DNA from: Isurus oxyrinchus | Lineage: Eukaryota | Direction: 5' to 3' | NCBI GenBank assembly: GCA_026770705.1 | Contig: JANJGN010000035.1 | Coordinates: 8,432,001 to 8,496,000, forward strand | Length of the DNA stretch: 64,000 bases | In this document: positions 191 through 64,000 of the stretch, in pieces | Layout: every line of letters starts with the position of its first letter | Numbering within the stretch: position 1 is the first letter of the stretch | The notes under the pieces: generated by a model | What the model was told of the DNA's origin: nothing | The model's input: only the letters and a program-made list of their open reading frames with translations | The model's database searches: none | Position numbers and translations under genes: made by a program

Positions 191-1466
191 ACTACACTAT
201 TGAAATACAATGGACTCAAAGTTTTTCAAGGGTAGATAAGAAGTAGCTTTCAGACCACAATAAGATCCACCATGCTACTTGTTCATGGGGTTGGGGACCC
301 GATAGGGCTAACTGAATCCTGCTCTTTGGTCATAGGTTCACATATTTTTGTAATGCTATTACACTTTCTGAAATTCGTAATGCAGTCTGCAGCTATGAAT
401 CAGATTGCCAATTATTTATTCGGCCAGGTAATTACAGAAACATCACTGTTTTGGATCATTTCTGAAATAAAAACTCTTCATGCAAAAAAGGTAGAGTTGC
501 TTCAGAGCAGAATTAGTGTCAGTATTTGACACCAAGACATACACGTTGATATTAAACAGATAATAGTGATAGAAATATCTCTTTGGGAAAATCAGCATAG
601 ACAGGTGAAAAGGCTAGAGGAGCATATGTTAGAGAGTAGGTCCTGAGACACGTAAAGCATCATCTGCATGTATGGAGCAAATTAAAACTGAATCTGCAAT
701 AAGTAATAATAATAACAACAACAATGTATTAATCATCATTAACATGATAATTGTAATCATCATTACGTGAAATCTTTTTGCAACTAATGAAACATGTTTT
801 CAGTTGGGCAAAAATGCATTTCCAGGTTAGTTTCGGATACCTTAACTTTCAGATACGTTTCCATCCATGGGCTTCTACCTATACCTGGCAATGTCCTTTT
901 TGGCTCTGGATTGGAATGCTATAATTTAGGAAAGAGGACTCAGAATTTCCTTTCTCCTTGCACGCGTTCTTGTAACAGTGTGTCGAAAATAAGTCTGGAA
1001 ATTCAATTTCTGCGTAGATTGTCAGCTCGGGCTTTGATAGTCTTGAACCATATTAAAATAGAAAATTGTCAGTTAATGGACACATTTTACATACTTCCGT
1101 TTTAAACACATTTTAAAACTCCGAGTCACATATTAATCAGGGATATATTTATAGCCTCTGCTGATGAGATTGTAGACGATAAATGCGATAGAAATTAAGG
1201 GAGCAGTTATAGAAACTAAACACTTCAAATCATTTCGAGCCACAAAAGCATTAAAATATTACACCAAGTTTCACAAAAGAAATTACCAAGCTCAATGTTA
1301 TTAGCGGAACAGCGTGAGAAGGAAAACAGACAGATGGGAAAAGCTTCTTTCAAAGTTAGGAGACTTGCTAAGTGAGCAACGGGTATTCGAGATTTGAAAC
1401 GTTTGTCAATGGGTTCTTACATTTAAGCGAATGGGAATCGTGAAGCAAGCCTTTCAATTTGCGAAC

Positions 1467-1755
1467 ATTTATTGTTCTTATGGATCTGGGCTCCACTGGC
1501 AAGGGCAGGAATTAAAGAACATCCTATTACTGGGGGGACGGAAGAGTCAACCACACTGTTGCAAGACAAGCACTGCGTATCTCCTTCCTAAAGGATATTA
1601 GTGAAATCGGTGGTGTTGTGCGACAATTGGCAAACGTGTCATCGTCATCATCAGAATTTTATTCCAAATTTTATTGATCTGCTATTTCACCATCTACAAT
1701 GGTGCGATTCGAAACTTGACCACTAGTCCAGTGACAATAAAACTATGCCGTTTCT
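1467..1755 (-). mobile_element. tRNA-derived SINE (Deu-SINE/SacSINE1-like), inserted in a GREB1-like exon
   Basis: The minus strand starts ggcatagttttattgtcactggactag with a B-box-like gtttcgaatc, has a central cactaatatcctttaggaagga block and an L2-like tail ccttgccagtggagcccagatcc. The family name is from recall. Confidence 0.7.
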
Positions 1756-3659
1756 AACTGCCCCCTTGTGTAAGTGCTGAGAATGTGCTGCAGCATATGA
1801 AGAGAAGGAACTTTGGCTAATGCTTCATGACTTTAATCATTCGTTTCAAAATGCTCTGCCAATGATGGAGTGGACAATTGCGCTTACGTGCTGTTAACAT
1901 TGAACAGCTAACATTGCTGCCTTAGGCAGGGAGCCCGAATCTGAATAGTTGAATTAGGCGCATTGAAAAGGCAGCTGAGAGTTATTTCGAAGAGAACACT
2001 GGGATTTGGGGCGGTGTAAGTGAGGGGCGGCTTGGGGGACCTCTATGTTAAAGAAGAAAATCGCTTTTGTCTCAATATTCATTTCATTGATTAACATTGC
2101 CAGAGGAATTTAGTAGAGCTGTAATAACATGACACGTGAAATGTTGCGTCTGCAGGCACATGTCAACAATTTAAGGGCGATGCAGAACTTACAACAATAC
2201 ACCATTTTAGTGCAATGTAAAATAGAAGGTCTCACATTTTGTTTAGGTGTTCCAATGTGTATTTAACGCACCTCATAGTCGGAATAATTATTCACGTTTT
2301 CGATTAAAAGCTGCACATTAGCAGACTCCACAAATTCTCCAATTGATTGCTCAGTTTTCCCACGGTTAGAATCCGTGTTACTCGCCTGCAGTTGGAGGAT
2401 TTCAGCAGCGGAATTTCCTGACAAATTGTGAATGAGAACTGATTAAATGCAGCTCCACCAATGACAAATGGAACATGAGGATCTACCGGTTATTGCATCA
2501 AGGCTGCTTTGGAAACATTCAAACAAGACAGATTCACATTCCCAAAATTGCACTAATAATTTTCGCTGTTTTCTTTATATTCGATGTGAACAGCGCAAGT
2601 TAGCCATTGGAAATAATACATTCTTGAAAATTATAAGGAATTGCAAATGCTGGATTACGTTAGTACAGATGTTATAGTGATGTGGCTTTAGTCGCCTACA
2701 CCTGAACCCATGTGACAGAATGGAGTGGACATGTTCGGGAACATAACAGGCAATGAAGAAAATTATCTTGAGGTAAGATGAGAGTACCGATTAATCGCAT
2801 GTCTACCTGCGGAAATATTCAAATTGGGACTGGAAGATAGGATGGGTGAATGAAGAAGTGGATCATGTATATGTAGATCTGACGATGTATTTGGCAGACT
2901 GACTGTTATGCATACTCGTATCGACACTAAAGGTAAAATCATTTTGGACAGCAAACCAAAAACTGCATTAGGTTTACTGATTTGGATCTCCCAGCTGTGA
3001 AACGGCATTCAGATATAGACACGTTTTAAAGGTGTTGGTTTCATATAACCGACACATAATTCAAAAGCGTCAGTAAGTGAAACAGTAAATTCATATTTTT
3101 CCTTTACTTATTCTCTTTCCCTTACCTTCATCATTTTTTTTATATAAAACTCAAATTATGATAATTATGGATACCACTATACCCGGCAATGAGAAAAATT
3201 ATGGGGAATTATTTGGAAAAAATAAAAGGGGGAGTCAGGACTGAAAACCTCCGCAGTCACGAATATTGAGCTTAAACATGACTGGAACTGAAAAAAATAC
3301 CAGAACTGAATAGCCTGCTGATGAAACTCTGCGGGAAGGAAAATGATTTGAGATGTAGCAGCATTGAAGGACAATGGGCAGTAGCTTCCTTGGAGTGGTG
3401 ATCAACGTTGGATTGCCACTTCCTGGACTGAGCGGCGTGGATTTTCTCCTTTGTCTATCTGCCGCCAGCCAGGCAAAGGCCTTTCATGTTCCAAGTTGAA
3501 CAGTAATCAGCACATGTCGAAGTGAAGCTTCGCAGAATTAAAGAAAAAACTGTCCTTTTTTATGGCACAAAATTCTGTATACAATGTAAATTAAAGGGCT
3601 CATTGAGTAGACAAGACAGGCAGTTTACGTCACTAAGGTGAGTTGATAGGAATTGGCGA

Positions 3660-4330
3660 GAGTATGCGGGTTAAGGGGTTGTTGTGTGTTGTTCGCAAGG
3701 GGGTTTAGTGTTGGAGGCAGAAGAATGGTGTTGCTGGACACCAGGAGCAGCAGAAGTCATATAGGGGTTGGATAGCGGAGGAGCTGGTTTTGCTGGGGCG
3801 GACAGACCTCTGTGGGTTGGCGGCCGGTGGTCAAGACCTCAGAGCTATGCATGTGGCTTTGGTTCTCCGTGGTGGGGGGAGGGAGGGCTTAGAAGTTCGG
3901 TAGTGTGAGGCGGGGGCGCCTCGGCTCGGCAGCAGTCTGGGATGGGTTGAGATTGTGAGACGGATGTCAGGGGTGGGGTGCGTGTGGGGGAGTTGGTCCT
4001 GCCGAAGGGCTGTCCTCTAGATTTTTGTGCTGGGCGGGGTTGGGCGGGCGCTTTGTCGGTTCGGGCCTGCAGTCGGGGTGTTGGGGGCCGATCATGGAGT
4101 CTTTCCATGTGCCGTCTGGATTTGGAGATGTTGAATTCTGTCAGAGTATGGATAGTGGAGTCTATACATTTGGGGTGTTGAGTGATGGGCAGGAGGGGAT
4201 TGTGGGGAGGTGCAATGTCGTGCGGGCCTACTGGAGCTTTAAGGGAGGACGGGTGTCGGCCATTGTCTTTACACAGTTACCCAGATGTTATAAGAGGCTT
4301 CAATTGGTCTATGTCTATTTCTGGTTAACT
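3660..4330. mobile_element. GC-rich unclassified repeat fragment
   Basis: Abrupt G-rich composition; Pro-rich minus-strand ORF 3845-4108 with no recognisable domain. Confidence 0.35.
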
Positions 4331-5981
4331 CTTTGACTAGCATAGGCGGAAAGAACAGTCGTTTGCGATTTCAATCACATTGTCAGATTCTGTCCAGCGC
4401 AGGGTAAATGCCAAGGGGAAGTTTGTACTTCTAAGCACTAGTCCATTCCATTACATAGGAGTTTGCGAGATGTATATCTCCAGCACTTCAATGATGTAGC
4501 ACCGAAGTCCGATGTTGTGGGAGTTCGGATATTGTGGCCCAACATAACAACAATCAACGGTTTGATTATTTTTCGAGTGTGGGTATTAAGGTGGAAACTT
4601 GAATAATCTAAGATGGTATAATTAGACAAAATATTTATTCGCTGGAATTTGTACGGTTGAAAATGTGCTTTTGTCCATCTTTACAAATTATGCTGAGAAG
4701 CTGAGCAAGTGGTTAGATTGAAACAGTTTCAGTTGGGTGGAGACAGAGTTTCTCTATCTCGCCGAGATGGTCAAACTAATTGAATAGGGAATTTAGAAGT
4801 GAAGGGATACACACTTCATGCTTGCCGTAGCAGGCAAACTGACAACCCACGAAGTAGCTAAAAAGTTAAATCAGAGAATGACAGATTCTTATAAACCACA
4901 GCGATAAAACAATGTAAAGAAAGGAGCTCTGTATAATAAATCTTGTTCAATGTTCTTTCATCAACTCATTGAATGTTGGAACAGGCAAAACAGTGAAAGA
5001 AACGATGGAAAAACCATGTCCTCATATGCAGCATCCGGAAAGTTTCAAAGATGCATTGATTAAGTCTTCCGGGCAAACAGAAGAGATTCTATACGTTAAG
5101 CAAGACGTACTTTAATTAACATCAAGGATTGAGTCCGGGTTTCCTTGTTACAGTCGCTCAAAGAATGAAAAGACCAGAAGATGAGTTGGAATTTGGAGGC
5201 AAGGACCACTATGTAGGCATGTAGCAAGTAGCTCCAACTAGCACGTAACTGATTTAGTACTGACTATAGTTAGGCATCATACATGCGCTCATTAGTGCCT
5301 TCTCTACTTTCATCGGATGGCAAAAATCTCCAAAGCTCCCAGCAATCGGAAAAGGAATGGAACAGTGCGTATCCACTGGCATAGCTTCTTGCAACGTCCC
5401 TTCATTACTGCAATATCAACAGTTTCTGTAAATGGTAGAAAATTACCTGTGCTGTTGTAATGCAAATATTTATTACCGTCAATCATTATTTGAGTCATTT
5501 CAAAAGGGTGCTGACACATTAACATCCTTTATTGTAACTTACCATTTTCTTTCAATATAACTTTAAAATTGATCACTGCTTCCAACTATGTACCTTCAAA
5601 ATCTCTATATGTTTCCTTAAATAATGGGTTAATAAAGTTTATGTCAGAGGTCTGTCAGAGAAGATTGGAAACGGTTTATGGCTCACTGAGCTACCAGATC
5701 TGCTACTGATCAACAAGTGACAAATCCAGATCATCTATTGCAGAAAGCCTCTTTACAAAGGGCAGAAAAAATACAAAAAATGTGATTAAAACTCAGTATT
5801 TGCGGGAGTATCTTTGGAGAATGAAACAGAGGTAATGTGCTGAAGGAAAGTAATTGAATGACTCTTAATACAGTTTTGCTGTGAACTCCCTGATTAATGG
5901 AATGTAAGCAGACATCTCGAAAGCTAACAGCCAGTTCTTGTGATTGTCTGAACTCATTGGGGACCTAAGTGTATGCTAACA

Positions 5982-6033
5982 ACTAAGTGTTGAGCAATTC
6001 ATTCGATACTAAGTGTTGAGCAATGGATTCGAT
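5982..6033 (+). repeat. 26-bp tandem duplication
   Basis: actaagtgttgagcaattcattcgat followed by actaagtgttgagcaatggattcgat. Confidence 0.9.
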
Positions 6034-6655
6034 GGGATACTTGGAAGGAGAACAATAATTGATCCGTTGTGTTATTCTTTAGCATCTCAATTTATTAGGG
6101 GACAGACAGAAAGTCAGGGCTTTGACTGCTCTTTTCTTTCACCCAGTGACTCCGTTGGATCCAGAAGCATATTCTTAATGGGTGATTTGCCTACAACCGC
6201 TGTGATTTCATGGATAATCACTTCTTTGAATTTTCCAAGGAACCAGCACGCTGTCCTTTATTGTGTACATTCGGATTTTCACCAACATAATTTCTGTTTG
6301 GAATACATGCAAAGGCGATTTTGAAAAAAATATTAGCTAGGGAACAAAACGGGCAATGTCGATTATTCTACCAGTATTGCAACTTGAAAAATGAAATGAT
6401 TAGAAATGAAAATGGGGCGGATAGGTAATGTGCAGCTCACCACATCTTTCTAAAGTACAACCTGGAGTTGGAAATAAGTTTTGGCCCAGCCAGAGAAAAG
6501 CACATCCCATGAGCGAATTGATTTTTTTAAAATTGTGGCTCAAATATCCGTCTTTCCAATTCTGTTACTCATGCTCTATCATGCTGCATAGAGCATTACA
6601 GTAATTTGACGGTTCAAACATTCGTTACACGAGGATTGCCTCAGTAGATTTTTAC

Positions 6656-6859
6656 TTGAATCTATGGTGATAATGAACTAAATTATCTGGAATTTTAACC
6701 ACAGAGTGGCCTCTGAAAACAATAATGGTGAAAAAGGATGCAGGCAAATTCGGCCAACGACCAGAACTGCTCTCATGGAATGAAGGGAAATACATTTGTT
6801 CTGTGTCATGAATAAAGCTTAAAACCTCTAAACAGCTAACATGATTCAAAACCACTTTT
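6656..6859 (-). pseudogene. GREB1-like exon remnant, 204 bp, open frame
   Basis: Polypyrimidine acceptor ttttgtttgctagtttatag and donor aa|gtaaaa. The phase-2 join with the upstream exon (donor at 7201) gives LKLGTLSKVVL vs GREB1L LGLQYRFEIIL. Confidence 0.65.
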
Positions 6860-8324
6860 CTATAAACTAGCAAACAAAAACACACATGAATAATATACCA
6901 ATGTGTGCTGCGCGTGCATGCAATGTCCAATTCCACATTGTCATGCCAGGCAGGCGCATGATAAGAAGACGCACAATATTGGGCAGACAAAATGTCGGAC
7001 CACGCATAGGTTCGTACTCACGAGGTGAATATATAGATGAACGGTACACGAGCGAAATATGCACACGCATATAATTTCAAGGCATGTAATGCACAGGCGC
7101 ACGAATTGCAGTGCCAAAAATTAGCAACAGAAATAAAGCTACATGAATGTGTGCTCTAACACAAAGGGAATTCCTTTCAGTAATGTTGCAGTTTTCGTTA
7201 CGATAAGGTACCCAATTTTAACAGGCATTTTAGAGCGTTAAATCTGGTTTTGATTTTTGGCACAAGGCAATGGTTATTTTGAATTTGCATAACACATACA
7301 TGTCATAGATTATTCATTCGTGTTTATTTTCAGTCTGAAACCCTAGCTGCCCGTCTCTTTGCAATAAGAATTTCGTTATAATCTATAAGTTTCTCTCCCA
7401 AACTTCTTTTTCTCTTCGTCTGCGAATAAATACAGTCATATTTTACCGATTCACATCATAGTTGCAACCACCACGTTGTTAGTTCACTCCTTTAAATGTG
7501 TCCCTCGAATTTTTCATGATTCCACAATTATGTTCCAAGACAAAGAACCTTGCGTATGGTGGGGTTTCCCCTGAATAATCGCTTTCCAAGCATTCATTCA
7601 AAAGTAATTATCGATTGAAAATTATTTACGTTGTTTTCTTTGGAAATATCTTCATGGCGTTGGTCCTTCAAATTAAACACGCTAATTTATTTTAGCAAAT
7701 ATTTCGTGGAATTACTTGCTTTTCGTGATGCTATGGAATATGCAATGCGTGCAAAAAGAATGATACCTGAGGCTTTTAGGACCAAAATAAATCTGCGATT
7801 GCGGCTGTATATTGAGACCTAGCATTTGAAATCGTTTTGAAATATGATCATTTCTTATTTTCTGAATGCTACCACAAATGCTTGGAAAATATATTTTGAA
7901 ACAATGATTCCAGAAACCACCTGTGCAATTTTTTTCTGAGAAGAACTACAGTGTTGTGCTTAAACCTTCACTTCACTATAAATAATATGTGTTGTTAGGA
8001 ATATTTGACCGCAAAATGGGATCTCCAAAATTGAATGCAACCGCATTATCATGTTATTGTCTTCAATTTTTGCCCATATTTAGTATGGTCTATATGTGCA
8101 CAGAGAAGTTGTGCTGTTCCCCAGCAGCTACAAATTGGAGGAGGTAAAATTTCCGGTATTTCACCAGAGGGAAAAAAAATCGAATCACTTTGCTATCGCT
8201 CTTTGCAAATTAGTCGTCAATCCACGTTTGTGCAAATGAACATAAATTGTTGAAAACATTTCGAAGCATGCATGGACGGGAATCATACAAAATTATTAAC
8301 TATGTCAGTCGTCATGATGAGCAC

Positions 8325-8490
8325 AGCAGATGTTGGAAATCTGAAACAAAAACTAAATACTGGAAAAACACAGCGGAGTTTCGTCTTAGGTCTGAAAAAG
8401 TGGCATACAGATTCGAAACTTAGCTCTCTGATTCTCTACACAGATGCTCTTAGTGCTGCGGAGTTTTTCCAAAAAATTTGTGTTCATATT
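8325..8490. mobile_element. Penelope-type terminal (pLTR) fragment in inverted arrangement, with a decayed hammerhead motif
   Basis: gcagatgttggaaatctgaaacaaaaactaaatactggaaaaacacagc is an antisense copy of the element end; it is followed by the sense copy ctgaaaaag..cgaaac..cagatgct..gagtttttcc, matching 44608-44702. Confidence 0.6.
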
Positions 8491-9539
8491 TATGTTATCT
8501 ATTAAGATAACTGAAAGCACTCTGACTGATAAGGCGACGAAATTGCTCTCTAAAGGAAAGAAACATCTTTGTGATTATTCAGCTATGCTATCTATCAGTT
8601 ACTTTATAACTATGAAATTGAAAAATAAACGGCGCCAATGCATTGTAAAGTAGGTTAGAGAAAATCTATTTTGCTGTGTTATTGGCAGCCTTTCCACTTG
8701 TGAAGCAAGGCTGGAAATAAATGTACAGTTGATCGAGGGAGAAATTAATCCACAAAATTACAGTTGGATATCGGCTATAAGTTGTCAGAAAAGGAACATG
8801 ACTTTGGAGTTCAAGAAAAATAAACAGGTGACATTATAACAAGTATGACAGACGGAGTTGAAAATTGGGAAGCCAAGTAAACTATGGGATGAAATGATCA
8901 GAGTTGAAAAGTCTAAATTCTGGACAGTGATATATGTTTACTCGGTTACAGACAGCAGTCAGTACTGAGACTGCAAGATCTCACAGTACATCCGATGAAA
9001 TTTAGAATGTAAGAATTATTTAGGGAAATTGAGGTTCCTAAAAAGAATCTAGAAGATGGAAAGAGAGAAAATAGAAATGGCTCACCTATTTTGCCAAGAA
9101 GCAGATTCCAGAATTCATCAACCAAAAATATGTGAGTTACGGGACAAATAAGAATAGTAGGGCATTGTTGCCAGAGAACTAGAAGGACTTGAAAACGGCT
9201 TAACTATTTTTTTTTCCAGCAGCCTTATATGGAAGTTTATTTAAAATACTGGAGTTTAAAATATTTTCTTTGCTACAATGGTTTTATCTTTCTTTTTTTA
9301 TGTCATCGAAGAATGTATACATGTTCTTGCCAATGAAATACTTTAAATCCTGTCTTCCTGCAAATCTTTTTAATTAATTTCCCAATCCACTGCAGTAAAA
9401 GGTTCCCTCATCTATTAATTTTTTCAGTTGTTCAGATATAGGAATGAAATATAGCACTTTAAAACTTAATGTACAAACCTATCAAGACATTGTCACGTTT
9501 TCCTGAATATTCATTTATAGCTAGGTTATAATGCATTCA

Positions 9540-10140
9540 TTACATTATATTAAATATAACATAACATCATGACATAAATGGATAAATGGTTCATAAGACG
9601 ACAGGTTCAGAAGCCCAACATATAGTAATTTCAAGAAATCGTTATGAACAGCATACCTGCTATGTTGTTTTGTCCGTTCGATAGACAAACTGACCACGCC
9701 CCTTATTAATCTATTTCCCATGTTGCCCGAAGCCCTAATGTCCTTACTGATATTGATACCAACGTAACCGATTAATTTAGTTGGGCTATAAGCAACTCGC
9801 AGAAATCTTTGCCCCCTCCTGTTGTTTCCCATCTCTATCAAGTGTAGTACCTGCACTTTGACCATTGGATCTCAGATGCTCCCTTAGAAAAGTACTGATA
9901 TTTTCCCTTCTTCACAGTGTTAACTGCCCCATAACGGATCACCCCGATAACCAACATTTTTTTTTTAAAGTCCGTCCTGATATGCCATTGTTCTTGAAGC
10001 TTTGGCTCACAGTATTGGGCATGCTGTAGCAAGGTCTCCTTAAAAATCATTAAATTATAGCCAATGACGTCCATTTTGGCCTTCAAAACAGCTACCGTGC
10101 TACGGAGGCTGGCTGCATTGAAATAGAGTGCGCTTAAGTT
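9540..10140 (-). mobile_element. CR1 LINE ORF2 APE endonuclease fragment
   Basis: LSALYFNAASLRS..YNLMIFKETLLQ and EMGNNRRGQRFLRVAYSP match CR1 EN motifs (YFNARS, ETW, GVVYRPP). Confidence 0.75.
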
Positions 10141-10459
10141 TATCTATTTAACATTCTTCAACATTCCAATCGTATCTGAAGCTCTGTCCTTGCATTGTCT
10201 GCTTTCTAATTTTGCGTAAACACTTTTCTACTTCGTGTTTGGAGTTTGGCTTCATTTAGAATAAGTTCCCTTGCAGATAGCCATCAACCTGCCAAACCAA
10301 TTGGAATCCTCCCCAAGAACAAAGGCAAATCTCTTTCCGAGGATATTAGACCCGGTCCTGCTACTGTGCTATCCATCCATTTGTCCATGTCCTACCTGCC
10401 TCACAACTGGTGCAATGCCTTCAAAAATCTGCTTCAAAAGCAAAACACTGTGGTTACTC

Positions 10460-10572
10460 GAAAACTGAAACAAAAACAGATGTTGCCAGAATATAAATAG
10501 CAGACCTGAGTGCATCTGGGGAGAGAGAAGACGAGTTGACATTCCGATGCAATATGACCCTTCTTCAGAGCT
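10460..10572 (-). mobile_element. Penelope 3' terminal fragment with hammerhead-like core
   Basis: Reverse complement ctgaagaagggtcatattgcatcggaatgtcaactc..cagatgc..tgtttttgtttcag is homologous to 44608-44702. Confidence 0.65.
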
Positions 10573-12073
10573 TATAAATCTCATGCCCCCCGCCTAAACC
10601 AATTCTGCCGCCACGTATGCAATTGTTCTCCCCTTCTATCCCTTTGCTCACTGGCGCATGGCAGTTAGAGTAATTCAGAGAATATATATTTGCAGCCAAT
10701 GCCCTTGAATTTGTTTTCTAACTCGCAAGCAGATCAGATTCCAGGAAGAACCGGAAGCTTTTTGAACTCCTGGAGCCAATCTCTCTCCTTTTCCGCTCCA
10801 GTTTCTATGTTCTTCCATCTTTTGGACTTTGCCCTATAACCTCAATGATGCTGTGTCTCAGCTATAATCCCTGTCGTCTATCCAAACTATTGACAGGTGG
10901 TATAAATTTGAATCTCGTTCTTTATAACAATTCCGTGTTGTCGTTCATGCTTTTAATGACTAGTTGTAAATTGACTGCAGCAAGTAGTTCAGGAGCAAAA
11001 ACGTTTCAGTTTTTTGGATTAAGTTTATGATTAGCATTGGTGATGTGAACATATGCATAGACGTGATCAATTAACATTGAACTGTATACCATAAATTTAC
11101 CCGCGGAATTTATCAGCCTGTTGCTGAATAGCAGCGATCGTGAAGAAAGACAGCTACAAAAATTTAAAGAGGTCGTGACCTTGCTCCAAGTATATGAGTT
11201 GCACTGTTTGCTAGTTTGACTATTCTTTAGTGTGTACATATCACAAGCATGCATGAATACCAACCACAGCCAATATGACCTGACATCCTTGCTGAGGGCT
11301 TTGAAAGTGGGTGTAGGTTGGGGTAGGGAAGGCACCTTAAAATGGTATTTGGAGAAGGTCATTAAGCCAGTAACAGATTGATGTTAAGAGGCCCGGTGGC
11401 AAGGCAAATGAACAGTTGCGTGGTTGTTACAACCATGGCATTGAAGACAACTAAAGTCGGGTCTGACAAGTGTTCAGCTGCTCTCTAACAGCTCCGCGAG
11501 CTCTGCGCCTATCTTTTGGACTTATTACTATTAATCACAAGGTTGCTGAATTATTTGACACTTGTTTGCCAATTAGCTCGTTCTAATTATCAGAGCTATT
11601 AACAAGGACTTGATATATTTGATTATAATGGCGATCATATTTGGCATTTGTTTTTATGTTTGTTGCATTCAGCAACAGAAAGGTCCAGCGAGGTGCCAAT
11701 AGAAGCTTAAGGCACCACGGTCACACCAAGTTGCAAAATTGAACAAACAAAATGAGCTGCCGGAAATTGATTGTTGCATCATCTTTCTACCATCTGGCTA
11801 CTAAAATTTGTGGGCAAAGCCATGGTGTTGAGATGGATTAGAAGTGTTTTTTTTTTCTTAGAGCAAGGAGAAATGTTCTGCAGCAATAGCCAGTACATAT
11901 GCCGCAGGGAGCCACACACTGAGGAGTGCATAAAACAGGAATCGCAAGGCAGTTCACAGAGGAGACCGCAGACAGGCCCCTGATTGGGTAAGATGATACC
12001 CTGTAGAAGGGGTAAATGTAAAGTGCATCAACTATCTCCTAATGTTGACGCAACAATGTTGCTGATTTATCAC

Positions 12074-12359
12074 CTGCCTGCCAATAGATTTTTAAGGTCT
12101 TTTGGCCATGATGATGGACTAGTCCTCTTATGCCAGTAACAGTAAAACTCATTTTGCCCCGTCTTCATGTACATCTGATGCATTTCACGGCCCAAGTATA
12201 TACATGCAGGGTACCACAATTCAACAGCATACAATTGAAACATTGGCTGACGGATGTGGTCTTCAGTTGGGTCACGCAATGTGTTCATTAAGAAACATAT
12301 CCGTAAAGCACTCTGAGCAAAACGTACTGGTTCCATTGCTGTATTCCTGGAGGTACAAG
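12074..12359 (-). pseudogene. GREB1-like exon remnant, 286 bp, fully open frame
   Basis: Acceptor catctgtcacag and donor ag|gtgata. Frame CTSRNTAMEPVRFAQSALRICFLMNTLRDPTEDHIRQPMFQLYAVELWYPACIYLGREMHQMYMKTG aligns by motif spacing with GREB1 [55 protein letters not shown]. Confidence 0.65.
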
Positions 12360-15300
12360 CTGTGACAGATGCACATAAATGCCATGCATACATCTATTGC
12401 AGATCTAGCAGCTTTCGTTAGCAGGTAGCAATCTATCCCCCCCACAACCCCCACCTTAGGGCGCCTTTCCAAGTTGCATTAATTATTTTCCTAGGTAAAG
12501 CGACAAACTGACCACATTGCCACCAATATTATGGGCTCTTGCTTACTAACAGATACGATCACACATTTCCATGCGATATCAACTCAAGGAACTCATCTGA
12601 GGCGTTGCCTTTGCCTGCTCCCTCAAAGCAGAACGTCCATTTTGATTCAACTTCCTTCCAAAGCGAATGTTTACTATGGGCAAAGTTTTGCATAATAGAA
12701 TAGGTTACCAATATTGTTATATCACTGCTGCCAGTGTGTTTTTTTTTACTTCCTATGAATTCACGGCAGATTAACCTGTACAAAATCTAACCCCAAGCGT
12801 GCATCATTAAGTTTAAATGTCAGCGTATGATGAAAAAAAAAAGTGCACGAAGTTGCCACTGTGACGCAGTGCCACTCGAGATCCTCTATCCACCATGTTG
12901 GAAAGCACGATTTTTAAAGGGCCTTTACCATCCCTGCATTACTAAACTCATGGCGCTCTACCATTGTCACAGTTGCAATACTGTTTAGATCTTCAGCGTA
13001 GAGCTGACTTGACAGTAATAAAGCTCCGGCTAATTTTGCTGAAAGTGAACTTCAGAGGATGGGAAACTTGGATGCAAGAGAGGGTAAGGAAAACGGTTAG
13101 TTTGACTGCCAGTTTGATTGTTGCTTGATTGCATAAAAATATCTAAGATTTGTATTCCCAGAGCCAAGCTTCAGGCTATGGCTACGTTTGCAGAAGTAGA
13201 GCTTCATGCAGATTTCCAGCTTGTCTGTGAATAGGATTTTTCTTTCCTCCAGAACGGATAGCGATTGAAATATAGTGCCGGCACATCCAATAGCATTCAG
13301 CTGGTTCTGCGGCAGCTTTATTAAGTTACCTCATGCCGCGGAATGGTCATTTGCTCCTACACTACAAGCAGATTATAAAGCAGCTGCCATGAGCTGACGG
13401 CAGTATTTGGAATCAGCATTCTAGTGTCAGTATGATTCGGAAGTATCTCTCCTTTCACTTATCACATAATAACATTACTCTCCCAGAGTTGCCAAATTCC
13501 TTCAAATAAATTTTTCACGAAGCACCATGTAAGCGGCTGTACGATGTTTATTATATAATATTTTCAAAACGGAGAGACGTCGTCCTTCCTTTAATGCACA
13601 TGGGCACAGATCCACATTCAGGTGCACAGAATCTGGAGCGTCCGATTCAAATTAACGATGACCAAGGGGGACATTCTCCATTAAATTACAAACGCTTATG
13701 ATAGAAAGTAGCAACAATTTTTTTTTTTAGAATCACCATTGCCTGAGAAGGTCAAGAAGACATGGAAATTAATATTCTTTTACAAACTTCCCAAATACTC
13801 AATGGCTGGGAATAAATCTGCTCATTTGTTAAGTAGTAATCTGACAAACGTTCTGATTAAATTACACCAGGGAAGGTCTGAAAGACATTCTTTTTTATCG
13901 GTGGAAATGTTTCTTTTCAAAACTGACCACTTTACGACAATTAACAATTTTCACAAAATTATCAGAAACACATGCTGGCATATGTTCAAAAAAATGATTC
14001 ATTCGTCGGCATATCTGGAGCGCTGATGGTCATCCCATCTAATGGAAATCTCTGGTCTAATTGGAAATCTGGTCCTGAGCCAATTAGAAGACAAAATGTA
14101 ATTAATTCCGTTCTCACCTTCCTGATACTTGGGCATGAGATCATCAGTCTGCAGATCTGAGATGCAGAACAATCGGCACTACTGGAAATTCTCACAGTAG
14201 AAGGATTATTGAAAAAAAACTGCCTGATTTTCTAACCTAGAATTTACATAAAGTATTATTTTCGAAATATATTTACCGCGGTACCCAGTAGCTTGAATTG
14301 AATGGTTCAGTATCCTGCCTCCAATATTGTTTAAGCAGCAACTGTTGGAGCATTAAGTGCCAATGGATACAATTTAACTGTTAATCTTAAATTAACAAGA
14401 AAGACTTTGCATGATTATAATGCTCGCCTTTTCTAACGCTACATTGATTTCTGGACTACTCACAGAGTGCGAAGCAGGCAAACTTAGATTGGAGGGAATG
14501 CTGGTGAATGATGGAATCTGAAAACAATTGCACGAGATTTGATTATATTGGTTATCATGCTATAGCATCAATGTGTAACATTTACGCGATATTGGCCGGC
14601 TGACAGTCTGAGAAGGGAAAGGTGTGTATTTAAGTCCACTTCTTCAGGTTGCAGAATGCCAGTCATTAATGAGAATTGTGAACCAAAATAAGTATTTTAA
14701 AATCAATCATTATTTAGTCAATGGAATGATATCCTGCCTAGTGATCACCTGCTGGTATCTCCGTGGTTGCCAATGTTCTTTTTTATTTCTCCAATGAAAA
14801 GGTAGAGACAACATGTTAGTTTAATAGCTATATATTTTACTTAGTGTCCCTTATAATTCAGCCTATCCATACTCCCAGTGGAATTATGGTTAACATTTTT
14901 AATATATATATATGCCAATTCACGGTAAACTTAAAAGCTATAGCTTTGATATAAATGTATTGATTTTTCACTGATATGTTACATTTTCTATGTGTTTGCC
15001 GAATTCTTACTTTTTAAATGAATGTTTAAAATCATAGTATGCTTAGATTGACTACTTTTTTGGCGAAGATATTTCCAGTTATCTGTAGCTCAAAACTTTG
15101 GTCGTGGACTATAAAGAATTCATGGTGATGCAATTTCCTTGTGAGATTTTTTTTTTCAAATGCTTGACGTTGATTATCTACCATCATGTAGTTAAACATA
15201 ATGCGTCTCACCCTACCTGGCCAAACTATCCACTACCCATATATATTTGGAATTGTTAAAATTTACGTCTCTAGTCTCTAATTTAACCACATCACTCACC

Positions 15301-16531
15301 AACATGAGATTAATCTCTACATTTCATGATTATTCATTCCATCATCATGTGTAATGATAGGGCTCCAAACTAAAGCTGAGTGAGCAGAAAATAGCTTTGG
15401 CCTGTTTGGTTTCTCGAAATAATAACATAGTGTAATTTCCGGCAGATAAAGAGGCCATTGACACTGTTAAGTCTTTGTTGGCTCTGCAGGAGCTGTCGAC
15501 TTGATACTGGTAGACCATCAAGTCTCACGTGAATTTCCAATTAGCCTTCGAAATCATTCATTATTTCCCCATCCACCACGTTCCTGTTCCTCACTGCTCA
15601 GTGTGCAAAATCTTCCATCTGAAGCCCCCGACCAGCTGTTGTGGACGTCATGCTCTCTGCAAGCTTCATTCCTTCTGCTTCAATTAAGAGGAACTATTTA
15701 CTCTTGTCTCCTACGCAAACCTAGCAACAATTGGTGAACATCAAACAATTGCACTCCTGCCCTCAATGAGAATCACCCCACCACCCCCCATCTCCCCACC
15801 CCCACTACCCAAAACGCCGCTTGCACACTAACAAAAAAAAATATAAACCCAGATGTCCGGTGTTATCATTGTAATTTAAATCCCCCAGAATGGGCACCAT
15901 TTTGGTGGATAAAAAATGCACGTTGTAAAGGTCTTTCACATTCACCATAAAGCAGTGCCACTGCATCTGTATGTAATATCCTATTTGCGGTGCAACGAGA
16001 GCTTTACACACTTTCAGCCGAACCTCCCTGCCTCTGTTGTCAATGACTTTGAAGACCACTTGGAAGTGTTTTTGCAAGACGAATTGTGCAAGAAGGGCCG
16101 TGTAACTTGAATATTTTGTGAAGTGGGATAAGAAATAACATAAAATATATATAAAACTGATTAGGTGATAATGAAATTGAATGACATTCGACATTAAAGG
16201 CACCTTGAACGCTCTCTGGCTGCATATGAATTTTAAGCATGTGGTAAGATAAAATGGGCGTACTTTTAGGAATATCTGTTTAAAGGCTCTGGACAAGAAG
16301 GCAACAATGAATGTGGCCAAGTAACCATACTCTTTATCCCATACCAAGCATTCAAAAAGTGCAAATTGACCAGAATTGCATAGATGGAACAGAACGCTCC
16401 TTGTCGTGGATCCCACCTCTAAACATAAATTTTAGCTCAATTCCAAAAGTATCGAATACATGTCATCTCGCAAATGCCACAGGCAAAGTTGGCCTTTAGG
16501 CAATGATGACATCTGGGATGAGTGTCCCAAC

Positions 16532-16555
16532 ATATATATATATATATATATATAT
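16532..16555. repeat. (AT)n microsatellite
   Basis: Run of about 12 AT units. Confidence 0.9.
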
Positions 16556-16989
16556 GTTTTTTGTTGAATCCACCTCCTGCTAACTGGTCACGACTCTGGT
16601 TGCTGAACAACCATTGTTTCCATTTAGGAGACGCAAAGCTGAAGAATTTGCATACATCATGACACAGAAGTTCCGAGTGGATTTACAATCTCGGCCTATT
16701 CACGATTAGCCAATGTTATTGCATCTACACGGCATGACATAAACTGTCCAGGTAAGCCCTGTTCACAAAAGAAAACAAATAGGACACACCGAAGGTGCTC
16801 AATTATTGAACAATCACTCTAATTTCGATCATCAGCAAGGTAATGTAAGGGAATTTGAACAGTGCTGTCAAGCGACACATACTCAGGAACAACTGACATT
16901 CACAGATGCTCAGTTAGGGTTCCTCTATGAACAATAATTAAGGGCCACATTATAATCTTAGACAAAGAAGAGGACAAGTAAATGTAAAT

Positions 16990-18100
16990 ATGAACGGAAG
17001 CGGTGAGGAGGCAATGCCTGACTTGAGCATTGAAACAGCATTCCATAGAGTGTTGTATCAAGTAGCCCTAACAAAAAGGGAGTCAATGGAAATCAGCGGG
17101 AAATTCCCCACTTTTTGGAGTCTCACCTCGCTAAAAGGAGCGTGGCTGTCCTTGTTGGAGTTCAATCATCTGAGTCCCAGGACATCAATGCAACATTTTC
17201 TCAACGTAGTATATTGCCCCAAGTACCTTCAGTTTCTTCTTCAATGACCATCCCTTCATCAGAATTTCAGTAGTGGACAAGTTCGCTGATTGCACAATGT
17301 TCAGCGCATTCGTGATACCTGAGACCCTGAAGGATTCTGTGTCATTATGAACCACACCTGGAAAATATTCAGGATTAGGTTGATAAGCAGCTAGTAACAT
17401 TTGAGTCGCACAATGACAATTAAGGCAGAAACGACAAGAGATAATTCAACCATCTTCCCTTGATCTTGAATCGCATTTCCATCACTGAATGCCCAATTAT
17501 CAATATCTTGGGAGTTACCATTGAACAGAAACGTCCCTGTGTTGCCATATAAATGTTAGCAGGTCAGAGCCTGTGTGTGGAAGCCTGTCCATGATCAACA
17601 ATCTTGATGTCAGGACTTGCTTTGAAAAGTGCAGTACCAACAACACTGAAGAATCTCGACAGCACCCTGTCTTTCGCAAGCTTGATTTGCATTACATCAC
17701 CCAGAATATAGAGTCAAGCCCTGCAGAATAAACAAACTTTGGCAGTTGTGCTTATCATCTGCATGGTGCAATGCGTCAAATTATAATGGGCTGCTTTGAA
17801 AGCAACTACTAAACCTAGAGCCTATAATAAACAGAAGGAGAAGGGAAAAAGAGTCACAAGAAAGCCACCAAGTGTATTTTGTTGCGCAAGACACACACCA
17901 TCTTGACAGGGAGCTATATCACCTTCTCTGTGACAAAATCCTGGTATTCTCTTCACTACAGCACTCTCGGAGTTCCTAAGTCCCATGGGTTGCAGCAGTT
18001 CAAGAAGGAAACTCGCCACCAACTTATCAAGGGTTAATGGCAACGTGAATATACACTATGACACAGTCAAATGTGTTCACATCAACTGAAATAATGAGAT
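16990..18100 (+). mobile_element. L2/Crack-like LINE, RT C-terminal half and 3' end
   Basis: Decayed GVPQGS..FINDLPSII..FADDCTMF region at 17.18-17.31k and a 3' tail ending near 18.09k. Confidence 0.7.
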
Positions 18101-34780: not shown

Positions 34781-34794
34781 AAGGTTTTTCTTCC

Positions 34795-44702: not shown

Positions 44703-45634
44703 TTTACCATTATTAACCCTGGTTCAATGGAGAGTGCAGGGGAGCATGCCACGAGCAGCATTATAATGGTCCATTGCTTTTTGACAACTTGGTGAACCAA
44801 TAACACAGTACGACTTGCGTGCAAACAATATACGTTCCTGTAAATACCTTCTGATAAGAACTGTGGAATACCACAAAACATCCACTGCAGCAGTTGGAAG
44901 AGGCAGTACACATCACGATCTCAAGTACAACTAGGGATTTCCCATTCAACGAAGGCTACTTACGATGAATGAACCAAACAAACTTTTTCTATCTGCCTGG
45001 ACATCTATTGCTCCCAACTTTGGCACAAGCCGCAGGTGAACTTGTCAGTGCATGGAGGGCTGACTGTGCCATTGTTGTTTTCGCTGCCTCGGCCGCAGGC
45101 CCTTCCATTTTAATTCATTTTTAATGCAACAGAGTGCAGTCACATTTGACATGACGAAAAATGAGGTGAGCACGGCAATAAGTTAGATGGTAATTGCCAG
45201 AAAAAAGATCCATGATCATCATTGAACTCTCTTCATTTCAGTCATTCGTTGAGGATACATTTCGCTGGAACCCTTGGTGCAATTTGAAACAAGGTACCTC
45301 ATGCATTTTCCTGAGTTGCAGGATTACCTGTCAACTGAAAACACCATACACTATCACATCCCCGAAAGGTGACACCCTGACACTTTTCAAGAGGAGACTT
45401 TTTTGGGAAGAAAAGACACTAAGGAAAATGAAAAAAAAACATTTTGCGAAGAAACAAGCAAAGTGCTCGTTTGGTAGCACGGTGTTCCTCGTTGGTGTTT
45501 GCAAATAAATTACATATAAGTATTAGCCTTTTGTTTTAAAGCAAGGGATAAAGAGATACGAGATGGCTTTTGGAGGTCAAAGGGATAAGCAGCTGCATGT
45601 AGGGGCTTGCTGTTGGAACGTGCACAATAAATTC

Positions 45635-54483: not shown

Positions 54484-56605
54484 TGACTGGAAACTGAACA
54501 ATATGCAAAAATTACTGTGCCAGAACAGGAGAGCAAAAAAGGGATATGAGAATGCACTGACTAGTATGAGCAGGTAAAATCCCTAGATATTCCAGAAGTA
54601 TATCAACTTGAAGAGGATAGCCGGGGAAACGTTATGGGCCATAATGGACCAGGGGTCAATAATGCATGGAGCCAGAGGATGTCTCTAGAATGTTGAGTAA
54701 ATATTCCATATCCATCTTCACCCAAGAGTTTGAGGATGAAAGTATCAAACACGGGGAGTGAGAGAGAGAGAGACAGCTTCTTCAACAAATTGATAAAGGT
54801 AAGGACAAGGTATTGGAGCTTTTCTATGGCTTGGAAGAGGACAAATGTCCAGCTATGGATGAATTTTGTCCCAGAATGCTGAGGGATGAAAGGGAAGAGA
54901 TCACAGTGGCTCTGACCGAAAAGTTTAATACCTCCCTGGTCGTGGGAGAGGTGGCAGAGAACTGGAGAACAGCTATTGTGGTTCCCTTATTTAAGACGTT
55001 TTAGAAAGATAAGCCAGGGACCTACAGGCCAGTGAGTCTCACGTCAGTGGTCGGGAAACTACTGGAGGAAATTATGACGGAGAGAATCTTTCACCACTTG
55101 GATAGGCAACGTTTCATCAGGGATAAACAGCACGGCTTTGTCAGAGAGAGCTCATGCCAAAAAAATTCGACTGATTTTTTTGAGGATGATACCAATTGTG
55201 TAAATGAGGATAGTGCATTTGGTCTAGTTTACATAGATCTCAGCAAAGCCTTTAAAAAGATCCGACAGGGGAATCTTATAAATATGTCAAATATGCATTG
55301 GGTACAGGGTATTTTGATAAGGTGGATTCAAAATTGTCTCAGTTGTAAGAGACAGAGGGTGATGAGTGATAGATGCTTTAGAGACTTCAAGCTGATGTCC
55401 AATCGCCTACTGGAGAAACTTGCGCTCGGTCAGCTATTATTCATTATTTATATAAAGGGCATAGATGACGACGTGGGGTGTAGCATTAGTAAGTTTGAAG
55501 ATTACACAAGATCAGCATGCTGGGTAACAGTGAGGTTGAGTGATTTCGGCTACTCTAAGATCTAGATGGGATGGTCAAATGGACAGATAAGTGGCAGACG
55601 GAATTTAACCTTGAAACTTTTCAGGTGATACACTTTGGAAGGATTAAATTGACAAGGAAGCATTCAATGAACGGCATGAAACTAGGACAAAGTGATGCTG
55701 GTGTTCATGTCCAAGGCAGACGGGCCTGTTAATAGGGTGGTGAAAAGGGCCAATGGGACACTGGCCTTTCTCTAACGGCACATATATTACAAAAGTTGTA
55801 AGGTCCTGTTGGAGCTGTTTAGAAATTTGGTGAGGCCACAGTAAAGGAACAATGTGATTGCACTGGAGGCCGTGCAGAGGAGATTCTCCAGGATATTACC
55901 TTGGATGAAATATCTAAAAATATCTTAGTAGAGATATTATTTAAAATAATTTTAATTTTGACTGGAAACTGAACAATATGCAAAAATTACTGTGCCAGAA
56001 CAGGAGAGCAAACAAGGGATATGAGAATGCACTGACTAGTATAAGTAAGTAAAATCCCTAGATGTTCCAGAAGTATATCAACTTGAAGAGGATAGCCAGG
56101 GAAACATTAGGGCCCATAATGGACCAGGGATCAATTATGCATGGAGCCAGAGGAAGTAGAGATGTAGATGTAGAGAGTTTGGATAGACCAGTGTTGTTTT
56201 CTTGGAGCAGAGAGGACTGAGGGGCGTTCTGATCGAGGTGTACATGATTACGAGGGGCATGGACAGGGTGCATAGGGAAAGGTTGTTCCCCTTAGTTGAA
56301 GGGTTACTCAGGATGGGACATAATTTAATGGTGAGTGGCAGGAGGCTTAGAGGGTATGTAAGGATGAACGTTTTTACCCTCAGGTTGGTGCCAGTCTTGA
56401 ATACACTGCCTAGGAGGGTGATGGAGGCGTGATGCCTCACATCCTTTAAAAAGAAATTGAATGACCAATTGACACGTCATAACATTCAAGGCCAAGTGTA
56501 GGTAAAAACTAATAGGTTGAGAGGTCAGTTGTTTCTCACGTGTTGGTGGAGAATCTATGAGCCAAATTGACTCTTCTGCACTCTGTGACTCCGTGATTCT
56601 GTAAA
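54484..56605 (+). mobile_element. CR1 LINE, 5'-truncated ORF2 (RT) with 3' tail
   Basis: GEVAENWRTAIVVPLFK, YRPVSLTSVVGKLLE, QHGFV, DLSKAF, SKFEDYT; tail ctctgtgactccgtgattctgt. Confidence 0.92.
55959..56154 (+). repeat. 196-bp direct copy of 54484-54679 inserted inside the same CR1
   Basis: Both copies read tgactggaaactgaacaatatgcaaaaattactgtgccagaacaggagagc...tgcatggagccagagga with scattered substitutions. Confidence 0.92.
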
Positions 56606-61599: not shown

Positions 61600-62500
61600 A
61601 TACATCTTGCTGCATGCAGGAAAAAACAGACACAACTGAAGTCAGAAAGAAGCAAAACTGCAGAAATTGTCATTTGATGTAGGAGCCTGAAATCCGAATT
61701 TCAGAATTGAAGCAGTGGCTGCGGTCACTGTTGTGCTTCTGTGAGGTAGTGAATTATGTGGAAGTAAGATTAGGGACGTGGTTAGGCCGCGGTATAGCAT
61801 CATACAGGGAGTGAGTGAATTGTGACCATTAGTCAGCCTAAGAGAATGAGGCAACTTACTAATTCTCTGCATGCTGGTGAGGAGAAAAGCCCCTCAGTGC
61901 AGGCATCGAGAAACAAGTCCATGTTAACTGCGTTGTCCCAGATACACAGGAGTGGAGGAAGGAAAATGGAAGTGCAAATAGTGTTCGGAGATTAAATGTT
62001 CAATGTATATCACCGTTGTTTCTGTGGCAGTAAACGTGAGCCCAGGATGGGTTGTTTCCTCCATGGTGCTGGGGTGAAGGGTGTGACGGTGTGTCTGCAG
62101 AACATTTTTTCTGGGGAGGGTGAAATGCAAGATGCCATGCGTCACATCAGTACGAATGACATAAATAGGAAGAGGGATGATGTATTGAAATCTGGTGTTA
62201 CACATTTGAGGAGGAAATTGAAAAGCAGTACCTCAGGATCAGGATTATCTGGACTCTTCACAGAATCATTTCATACTGGACATGAACATCGCAAGGTTGA
62301 TCGCTTGGACACAGTGAAATAGAATAGCTGGAGCTGCTAGGACATCAAATGTCTGAGTCCTTCTTAACTTTTGTGGTTCAGTTTGGAAAGATACAAGATG
62401 TGCGTGAGTTGAACCTTAAGAGAAACAGGTCTAATACCATCACAAGTAGCATTGTTATTGCTATTGAGGAGAACTTAATCTAGCTTGTCAGGTGGCTGGG
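61600..62500 (+). mobile_element. CR1 ORF1 (SGNH esterase) fragment
   Basis: FCGSKREPRMGCFLHGAGVKGV..HISTNDINRK is homologous to 31.0-31.2k. Confidence 0.75.
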
Positions 62501-64000
62501 TAACTTAGGGTTAGCACTAATTCATAGGAAATAAAGCTGGCAAAAAGAAGTGGTAAGTCATAATCAAAGGCAGGTGAAGGAAATACTGGCAGCAGCCAAG
62601 CTTGGAATATTGCTGAAGAAGAGGCACATGGAAGTTGTCCAACTTACATTTATGAAGACACTTTGCAAGAATACCAGTATGAGGGGCACGGGGCGGGTGG
62701 GGGGCACGCCGGGTGTACATAGGAAACACTACCCCTCTACATTACGGAACATTAAAGAAATACAACCTGCAAAGTGAGTTCTGATCGGTTGGGATTTGGA
62801 CTGTGGTTAGTAGAGATGTTGCAGAGGATATTCCAGCAGTGATGGAGATAGGCAGTTAACTGCCAAGCATTATTTTAGGTTTAAACCAGATAAATAAACA
62901 ATGATTGGTAAAAGCATTGCCCTGAATGACAAATCATGGCCAAGCAGCCTGGTATAAATTTCAAACAATGCCTGGCAGTTATCTGTCTGTCAACAACAAC
63001 TTGTGCTGTTTGTAATAAGCACGATCTTCACATGGAGTATAAATTCTTGACCCCAACAGCTCCCAAATTCTAATATCACGAAGCTCTTGATGAGTGCAAA
63101 AGAAAATCTTCACTACGTTTCTTCATTTTCAGCAAAAATCAATGTCTTTATTACAAACAGACCATAAGCTTAGAATGCGACACAATGCAAAAATGCAAAT
63201 TTAAACCCACTGTACCTGAATGCACGCAGCATTCACAATAAGGTGGATGGTTCAAAGGCACAAATAGGGGTGAATAAAAACGATTTATTTGCCATTAGAT
63301 AAATGAGGCCAAAACGTGCAAATGACTTTTTTAGGTCTTTCCAGCTGAAGGAGGACAGACAAACAGTCGGTGGTGTCGGGTTCGTTCAGGGCGGGGTAAG
63401 CAGTGTAGCTCTGATGACAATTTATGTGATCAGTACATTAGTTAGGGAGGAGCTCTGAACGGGAAAGCAAAAGTTGAATGTTAGGGTGGAGCAAAAGATC
63501 ACCAAGTAGCCAGGGTAGAATGTGGTATGGCAATAATTGTGAGCTGAGTTAAACATTTAGCATGGATAAATAGCTAACATCTAGATTTCATTCTGCATAT
63601 AGATTGTGTAAACCTGAAAAGCAGCAATGGTGTTAGAGATCGTTTTTTAGGGCATATATTTCTAGAGCAGTATAAGGGCTGGCCGACGGGACAAGATGCC
63701 ACTTTAGATTCTGCATTATGTTGAAAAATATGGTTTATTAAAATATGTGCAGCCAACTAACATTTTAGGGATGAGTGACAGTAATAAGCTTGAATATTAC
63801 TTTGTGTTTGAAAACCTGATTGTTCAATATGAAGCCATGGTGCTACACTTGAACAGCGAAAATTATGAAGGAATGAGAGGAAACCCGGTAAAGTTGGTTT
63901 GGAAAATATATTAAAAGCTTTAATGATAAACAATCACTGGGTAGTTGCAAAAATATTATGGTGTAGTTTACAGAAACTGCAGTATTTTTGATGGCATATG

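Follow-up and report, generated by a model that had tools for sequence, protein, structure and literature searches.

Sharks are otherwise among the slowest-evolving vertebrates, and regional variation of the mutation rate is known. In Neurospora crassa, the domains that carry trimethylated lysine 9 of histone H3 (H3K9me3) have a 10-fold higher single-base mutation rate, another spectrum and a low GC content, as was measured directly with chromatin maps (PMC10234303). Shark chromosomes with few conserved genes show a synonymous divergence (Ks) of 2.79 vs 1.54, more heterozygous single-nucleotide polymorphisms and an enrichment of immune genes (PMC7677710). We analysed a 64,000-nucleotide stretch of the 4.98-Gb genome of the shark Isurus oxyrinchus (the window; positions 8,432,001-8,496,000 of contig JANJGN010000035.1, here C35, which is 19.6 Mb long). 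A first-pass annotation had assigned it to a non-recombining or hypermutable compartment, Y- or W-like or a B chromosome. Our results suggest that the window is probably a piece of a fast-mutating domain of about 3.4 Mb, which lies over a tandem array of NLR genes on a small, likely autosomal chromosome and likely consists of late-replicating, silent and poorly repaired germline chromatin.

With the H3K9me3 domains the shark domain shares the raised rate, the different spectrum and the low GC, and they are, together with the late-replication process of the human germline (PMC9217108), the closest working model (PMC10234303); here, however, the rate is derived from the fossils of transposable elements (TEs). 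Like the small immune-rich shark chromosomes, the domain has few conserved genes and evolves faster, but that study is gene-based and per chromosome; the term 'NLR' is absent from its main text, and the part drawn on holds no spectrum, neutral TE clock or sub-chromosomal domain (PMC7677710). In whale and zebra sharks a 'chromocline' was described, a gradual end-to-centre gradient with chromosome median dS values of 0.061-0.111 that is tied to higher GC (PMC13100897). In both cases the substitution rate varies by position within a shark genome, whereas we observed a mid-chromosome block with a 2.8-fold excess and a GC content below average, and the 5 chromosome ends sampled were near normal. 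In the human germline, process 5 is linked to late replication and comprises all substitution types with C>A enriched at TpCpN, and processes 6/7 are maternal, strand-asymmetric C>G spikes (PMC9217108). The regional, megabase-scale excess with all types raised in the same direction resembles process 5, but the C>A changes in the shark were not restricted to TpC. The C>G dominance and strand asymmetry of processes 6/7 were not found, as C>A leads and the strands are equal.

Lineage-specific expansion, birth and death and clustering in one block, as in the C35 array, have been reported for the NLRP-related NLR family of sharks (PMC8455134) and for the NLR arm of zebrafish chromosome 4 (10.1101/022061, PMC11075544). 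In contrast to our locus, no mutation-rate domain appears in the parts of those accounts drawn on, and the membership of the C35 copies in the whale shark clade is putative. A literature search that had most subscription papers and supplements outside its reach did not turn up any bounded, transversion-rich domain reported in sharks. A megabase-scale block with an about 3-fold excess, a shifted spectrum and mappable edges is large for a vertebrate germline, and here it falls on an array of immune genes in a lineage whose clock is very slow. It provides a concrete and testable footing for the 'fast-evolving immune chromosomes' of sharks and a place to test whether chromatin sets the germline mutation rate. 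Dating TEs or duplications, or building NLR trees, from such blocks would give values inflated about 3-fold.

Raised substitution in a bounded domain of C35

The TEs of the window had been called strongly eroded, and the comparison with the same families elsewhere in the genome confirmed that they are so beyond the genome norm. A 453-kb library drawn from other contigs served as the reference for tiles of 10 kb from the window (6), its flanks (20) and large chromosomes (20). The mean best repeat identity was 70-72% in the window and the flanks vs 76% in the large chromosomes, and the class of 80-90% identity made up 1.6-1.8% of the bases vs 16.6%. The observed/expected ratio (o/e) of CpG was 0.51-0.55 in the window and flanks (0.54-0.55 in the window) vs 0.26, and the detected repeat cover was 0.28 in the window, 0.42 in the flanks and 0.50 in the large chromosomes. 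When 14 repeat seeds were followed, 10 were more diverged inside the domain at P<0.01.

LINE-A, an abundant long interspersed nuclear element (LINE) of the type without long terminal repeats, was used as the clock. The Kimura two-parameter (K2P) distances from the consensus were 0.22-0.58 for 76 domain copies (C35 6.35-9.8 Mb) and 0.05-0.24 for 42 outside copies, with medians of 0.346 (the 76 copies forming 50 shared-flank groups) and 0.113 (P 2e-16). Bootstrapping gave an overall domain/outside ratio of 2.79 (2.38-3.26); by class, the ratio was 3.82 (transversions), 2.15 (transitions) and 0.78 (CpG transitions). The 12 LINE copies of the window itself had K2P components of 0.170 for transitions and 0.200 for transversions, vs 0.068 and 0.039.

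The same clock was read along the contig. The transversion distance of LINE-A was 0.167-0.200 at 6.42-9.71 Mb, 0.104 at 0.3-6.33 Mb and 0.072 at 9.85-19.4 Mb. The controls showed 0.039 in mid-chromosome DNA, 0.057 at five chromosome ends, 0.054 in the NLR clusters of C2 and C3, 0.048 on small chromosomes and 0.020 on C32. The values at chromosome ends, on the other small chromosomes and in the NLR clusters of large chromosomes are normal. Five tiles of unplaced NLR contigs looked fast (0.160, only 4 copies); 20 more tiles of other contigs held 9 copies with a pooled raw value of 0.056, of which 2 exceeded 0.10 singly. Towards the right edge the transversion signal was about 0.13 at 9.78 Mb and dropped to 0.06 by 9.80 Mb and to 0.03 by 9.87 Mb; no N was present in the tiles read from 9.77 to 9.895 Mb, and the domain grades into normal DNA. 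At the left edge a 30-kb normal island (6.315-6.344 Mb) lies over an open NLR with fast DNA on both sides. Its CpG depletion is normal and its LINE copies look young, which makes it a natural place to examine whether gene bodies are protected. A recent import of this island was rejected, as its best paralogues are only ~75% identical. The region is bounded, and within it neutral substitution is raised and the spectrum altered.

Outside the core, CpG o/e was 0.24-0.34 at 5 NLR-centred loci with long frames, 0.43-0.48 at 3 broken copies and 0.4-0.6 in most gene-free tiles. The long-frame loci therefore look shielded, as expected if transcription-linked repair protects them, although this comparison of few loci was made post hoc.

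The high divergence could also mean that the domain is merely old, having taken up LINEs early and then been mostly closed to insertion and weakly methylated at a normal mutation rate. The near absence of the 80-90% identity class (1.6% vs 16.6% of bases) agrees with this, as do the somewhat lower CpG transitions inside and the many domain copies that are older than the tandem duplications. If the source element had been older, it would be expected to differ from the younger one, yet the majority consensuses of domain and outside LINE-A copies differed in only 37 of 1606 columns, 10 of them CpG-suspect, and by 1.7-3.0% for 4 of 4 LINE-A seeds, so both sets stem from about the same source element. 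The transition/transversion ratio (ts/tv) was constant with age outside (1.44, 1.51 and 1.52 for the young, middle and old class), whereas copies of matched divergence inside gave 0.81 (8 vs 25 copies, Fisher P 2e-13). Age alone is insufficient because of the near-equal consensus and this shift of ts/tv. CpG transitions were 0.233 in the domain vs 0.300 outside (ratio 0.78, 95% 0.65-0.94), so the CpG clock was not advanced. Penelope-type copies at a CpG decay of 0.2-0.3 had transversions of 0.083-0.223 inside (n=5) vs 0.021-0.086 outside (n=5), and duplicates outside TEs had a ts/tv of 0.63-0.82 vs 1.49 for outside LINE pairs at similar distance. Young Penelope copies did insert here, and the rise among the substitution types was uneven, from 1.8- to 5.6-fold, both at odds with mere age. 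In the young Penelope copy of the window transversions exceed transitions, but this is not so in two further young copies of the domain. Taken together, the results point strongly to a rate effect rather than age, and the purely old domain is unlikely.

The spectrum was led by C>A, which rose 5.6x inside, followed by C>G (3.5x), T>A (3.3x), T>G (3.2x), T>C (2.4x) and C>T (1.8x). Deletions increased 1.3x, from 7.0 per kb outside to 9.3 per kb inside. Both strands were equal in rate with no asymmetry of substitutions, and adjacent double changes were not in excess (1.13x expected inside vs 1.18x outside). All 32 non-CpG-filtered contexts listed rose inside without hot spots, C>A was no greater at TpC than in other contexts, and the equilibrium GC was 0.34 in the domain vs 0.37 outside. 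The doubled CpG o/e would roughly be predicted by the raised background alone, so that hypomethylation is not required. AID/APOBEC-type or shark somatic hypermutation is recognised by context-specific C changes or tandem substitutions; neither feature was observed, since all listed contexts rise and doubles stand at 1.13x vs 1.18x.

Instead of closed chromatin, recombination- or break-linked mutagenesis might act in the tandem array, by frequent double-strand breaks and error-prone repair synthesis. Tandem segmental duplicates fill the domain; moreover, the human transversion-rich regional spikes have been ascribed to damage or to the repair of breaks in oocytes (PMC9217108), and for the shark chromocline recombination is the cause preferred (PMC13100897). 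We consider this improbable, because neither GC nor equilibrium GC is raised, deletions are up only 1.3-fold, adjacent doubles show no excess, and C>A leads in place of C>G with no strand asymmetry.

Poorly repaired germline chromatin is the explanation we prefer. Given the rate effect, unrepaired damage or mismatch in heterochromatin is weakly favoured as its cause. The germline chromatin of the domain would be silent and late-replicating, and oxidative and other lesions as well as mismatches would escape repair there. Unrepaired lesions would give a strand-symmetric rise led by C>A, the deamination of methyl-CpG would keep its usual pace, and transcribed gene bodies would be shielded.

Several observations weigh against this explanation. 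The chromatin state, timing and methylation of the domain rest on inference, and 4 open NLRs within the core are not shielded. Four of the 14 repeat seeds, all Penelope-type, had no significant inside/outside difference, and the older CR1-like seeds rose only ~1.3-1.7-fold, where saturation and detection limits may mask more. Because outside copies supplied the LINE-A consensus, their own distances come out slightly too low, although a leave-one-out calculation gave the same gap. Pooled young Penelope copies differed in transversions only (0.025 vs 0.015) with equal transitions; together with the four Penelope-type seeds, this means that the effect may be weaker now. Finally, 3 haplotig-like pairs from partly affected parts of C35, none of them from the core, were 0.3-1.2% different with a ts/tv of 1.2-1.4, and 4 control pairs were 0.07-2.9% different with a ts/tv of 0.85-1.4, so that the classes do not separate.

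Sex linkage and the copy number of C35

Loss of recombination relaxes selection without itself raising neutral substitution. Under male-driven mutation the ratio of the Y to the autosomal rate is 2a/(1+a), and a Y can therefore reach at most 2x the rate of autosomes. The annotation's compartment holds up in its hypermutable part (~2.8x substitutions with a shifted spectrum), but not as a Y-linked, W-linked or B chromosome that decays for want of recombination. The 2.8- and 3.8-fold excess lies above the 2-fold ceiling, and relaxed selection alone would leave the neutral rate as it is. Many pseudogenes, few conserved genes and an AT-leaning composition would suit such a chromosome, and the NLR-rich heterochromatic arm of zebrafish is sex-linked (PMC11075544). 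The equilibrium GC shift is only small, however, TEs are not piled up and the detected repeat cover is not above the norm. Fast and normal stretches alternate on C35 and are joined without a gap in the tiles at 9.77-9.895 Mb. Decay of once single-copy genes together with TE accumulation was not observed; only tandem NLR duplicates decay.

The location of conserved X genes was examined. Among the genes on the X of 13 elasmobranchs are nramp2-like and igfbp5-like, and a ZW system was found in none of 14 in the part of the study drawn on (10.1101/2025.02.26.637739). From the five conserved families (nramp2-like, igfbp5-like, ahr-like, krt8-like and sp5-like) two were searched, Nramp and IGFBP, and neither was found on C35. 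Nramp matched C14 and C32, and IGFBP lay at 5.25 Mb of C32 with 0 of 27 matches on C35; on C32 the Nramp and IGFBP matches fall within 0.6 Mb. The HoxC cluster is expected on the pseudoautosomal part of X and Y. C35 had no homeobox among the best 150 of 459 candidates, but this is a weak point, as the HoxC cluster was located nowhere and thus was not seen on C32 either. Two tandem Nramp genes stand beside the IGFBP gene at 5.25-5.84 Mb of C32, which makes C32 a candidate X chromosome. Its LINE copies were the least diverged of all sets (K ~0.05, 5 copies), as expected of an X.

The copy number was estimated from the reads of one other individual of unknown sex, with the assembly size taken as genome size and without a control locus; this second individual carries the region. 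From 30 bins over the window 14 were dropped as repeat pile-ups, and 2 more in a stricter count. The depth per run was 0.32 (16 bins) or 0.29 (14 bins), between the 0.38 expected for diploid and the 0.19 for hemizygous DNA, a value that still leaves some room for sex linkage. P was 0.10-0.21 under diploidy and 0.008-0.05 under hemizygosity, so that the exclusion is not firm and this part of our explanation is weakened. A restriction-site-associated DNA run covered repeats only. The depth of C35 in the second animal leans nearer to diploid than hemizygous. We hold C35 to be autosomal with moderate confidence, and a Y, W or B chromosome to be very unlikely.

All sampled 31-mers of window positions 33300-42300 were present in contigs from one sample (4 public runs), which is possibly the source of the assembly, and an assembly error as the origin of the window was rejected on this basis. 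No RNA dataset with the window sequence was listed among the public runs checked.

The NLR array and the reported ROCK and ESCO relics

The degraded NLR that had been noted in the window is real. Its NACHT exon carries 12 frameshifting indels and 7 in-frame stops relative to an open sibling of 586 codons at C35 8.82 Mb. The dead NLR is the only gene relic of the window and one tandem copy of the C35 array. The colinearity of its cassette with the siblings covers the exon, the flanks and a shared LINE insertion, and the ts/tv of the flanks is 0.75-0.82. In the genome, 30 of 96 NACHT matches fall on C35, 27 of those at 0.63-9.71 Mb and 16 at 6.35-9.8 Mb. All 16 were examined, and 4 keep open frames of 583-617 codons. 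Both NLR siblings scanned with Pfam showed the NACHT, NOD2_WH and NLRC4_HD2 domains. The copies at 8.82 and 7.64 Mb differ by 0.157, 0.159 and 0.169 at the three codon positions and by 0.177 in the flanks; as the codon positions differ alike, there is hardly any constraint on the protein, even though one frame is still open. The uniform decay that had been described was not observed, since these four exons are open and the young Penelope element at 42.9-44.7 kb is 90-93% identical to its relatives.

Tandem NACHT genes, open and broken, are tied here by segmental duplication, as in birth-and-death evolution, and the turnover is ordinary birth and death that matches the NLR expansion of the whale shark (PMC8455134). 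NLR duplicates that arise in the domain soon lose their frames; most are for this reason pseudogenes, and the few open ones diverge fast in protein. Sharks might even keep a 'two-speed' genome, with innate-immune and receptor arrays in heritable, transversion-rich high-mutation domains that spare some working gene bodies and are maintained because they speed up NLR diversification. We regard this as doubtful; if true, a germline parallel to the fast compartments of fungal pathogens would be on record for the first time in a vertebrate, and its boundaries could be mapped to tens of kilobases.

Degraded ROCK kinase and ESCO acetyltransferase domains had been read in the window as well. In tblastn with 17 full-length ROCK1/2 proteins the best E in the window was 0.16 (0.44 in the reversed-window control), the hidden Markov model (HMM) of the ROCK kinase domain had no match there, and 4 real ROCK kinase exons used as DNA queries scored 1.6-6.5 bits vs 1.7-6.6 in the reversed window. 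The 64 ESCO1/2 proteins gave 0 matches at E<0.05 in the window, the ESCO domain HMM scored 3.9 bits (control 4.7, real exons 73-105), and 4 real ESCO exons scored 2.3-7.8 bits as DNA queries (control 2.4-3.7). To these chance-level results the power of the searches was compared by decaying the exons in silico to 33% difference (threshold 12 bits, 40 trials for each exon). The DNA search detected ROCK exons in 100% of trials (median 52-61 bits) and ESCO exons in 97.5-100% (median 30-35 bits); the protein HMMs (>6 bits, 50 trials each) detected 64-88% for ROCK and 28-50% for ESCO. Weak ESCO- or ROCK-like tblastn matches in the window (E 0.018-0.04) were rejected as chance, as the window gave no match to the DNA profile of the ROCK-carrying repeat described below.

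The remnants are misreadings, save for the small chance that a single exon of a very old (third) paralogue is present; for ESCO this chance stays because the HMM alone detects only 28-50% of trials. With neither gene in the window, the proposed simultaneous loss of dosage-sensitive housekeeping genes falls away. Both paralogues of each gene are open elsewhere, the ROCK kinase exons at C5 79.17-79.19 Mb and C6 29.76-29.78 Mb and the ESCO acetyltransferase exons at C5 78.58 Mb and C6 61.43 Mb, and an ESCO2 exon found here matches ESCO2 of the white shark at 97% identity. An origin of the window as a decayed ohnologous block with ROCK and ESCO has next to no likelihood: ROCK1 and an ESCO gene really are neighbours on C5, but neither leaves a trace in the window at this sensitivity, and in a genome-wide DNA search window positions 200-16720 matched C35 duplicates and one dispersed repeat and nothing else.

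A decayed piece of the Rho-binding region of ROCK, 44-61% identical to ROCK1, is held by a dispersed repeat family whose copies are 68-80% identical over 0.3-1.9 kb. It occurs on C195, C5, C4, C14, C20, C3 and C21 and at 8 more places; it is absent from the window, where its DNA profile had no match. In this repeat the LQLELNQE segment precedes the segment that it follows in ROCK, and the repeat may have arisen when a transposon picked up a back-spliced (circular) transcript of ROCK1. A search for homologues with the repeat found nothing.

Other features of the window and of C35

The window has a GC content of 0.40, a single stretch of N and no long host-gene frame, and only 1 of the 50 open reading frames scanned with Pfam matched (RVT_1). 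The features are listed in the table. About 29 kb had no match in the loci compared and were probed for ROCK, ESCO and NLR only, in addition to the genome-wide search described above.

Features of the window (positions in nucleotides unless given in kb)
Feature	Position	Strand	Remarks
Part of the fast-substituting domain	1-64000		Domain extends over C35 ~6.35-9.8 Mb; window at 8.432-8.496 Mb
Old segmental duplicate	1-7910	+	74-78% identical to C35 8.040-8.048 and 7.258-7.266 Mb; ts/tv 0.63-0.82
Eroded LINE-A copy	16773-18038		Non-CpG difference from consensus 0.25-0.30
Old segmental duplicate	18895-28050	+	64% identical to C35 8.536-8.545 Mb
Older copy, Penelope-type family	24400-25366	-	Transitions 0.154, transversions 0.223, CpG decay 0.26
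Tandem NLR cassette	33316-41809	-	Colinear, ~65% identity, with cassettes at C35 7.64, 8.65 and 8.82 Mb
Dead NLR NACHT exon (shark-expanded NLR family)	36505-37999	-	134 bits vs control 5
Young Penelope-type element	42925-44705	+	Best other copies 92-93%; non-CpG transitions 0.035, transversions 0.040
Eroded LINE reverse-transcriptase fragment	54527-56463	+	RVT_1 at 55005-55562, E 1e-12
Further LINE-A copies	~20.9-21.1, 21.8-22.6, 27.2-28.0, 34.8-35.5, 53.6-54.5 kb

No recognisable gene was found in the first of the duplicates. The young element, which we take to be of the Penelope class from its reverse-transcriptase and GIY-YIG-like frames (Pfam gave no match), was compared with the 39 other full-length copies listed, and the 90-93% identity given above refers to these. 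The eroded reverse-transcriptase fragment is presumably of the CR1 type. Two local duplications of ~236 bp (33952-34436) and 208 bp (54475-54682/55950-56157) are 93% identical and younger than the decay around them.

Elsewhere, two unplaced contigs are 98-99.7% identical to parts of C35 (C53 to 0.63-1.1 Mb, C1040 to 19.3 Mb). They are probably second haplotypes retained in the assembly, and NLR counts from this assembly would be inflated accordingly. Outside the domain, a conserved-looking exon with a WWE domain (Deltex-like) at C35 18.0 Mb and a conserved-looking CCCH zinc-finger frame at 9.845 Mb are possible synteny anchors. A LINE with an open reverse-transcriptase frame of 951 codons lies at 9.827-9.830 Mb, just past the right edge of the domain. 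At 5.5-5.9 Mb, single-exon frames of class A G-protein-coupled receptors (7tm_1) stand among the NLR array, where the local transversions are raised to 0.12-0.17.

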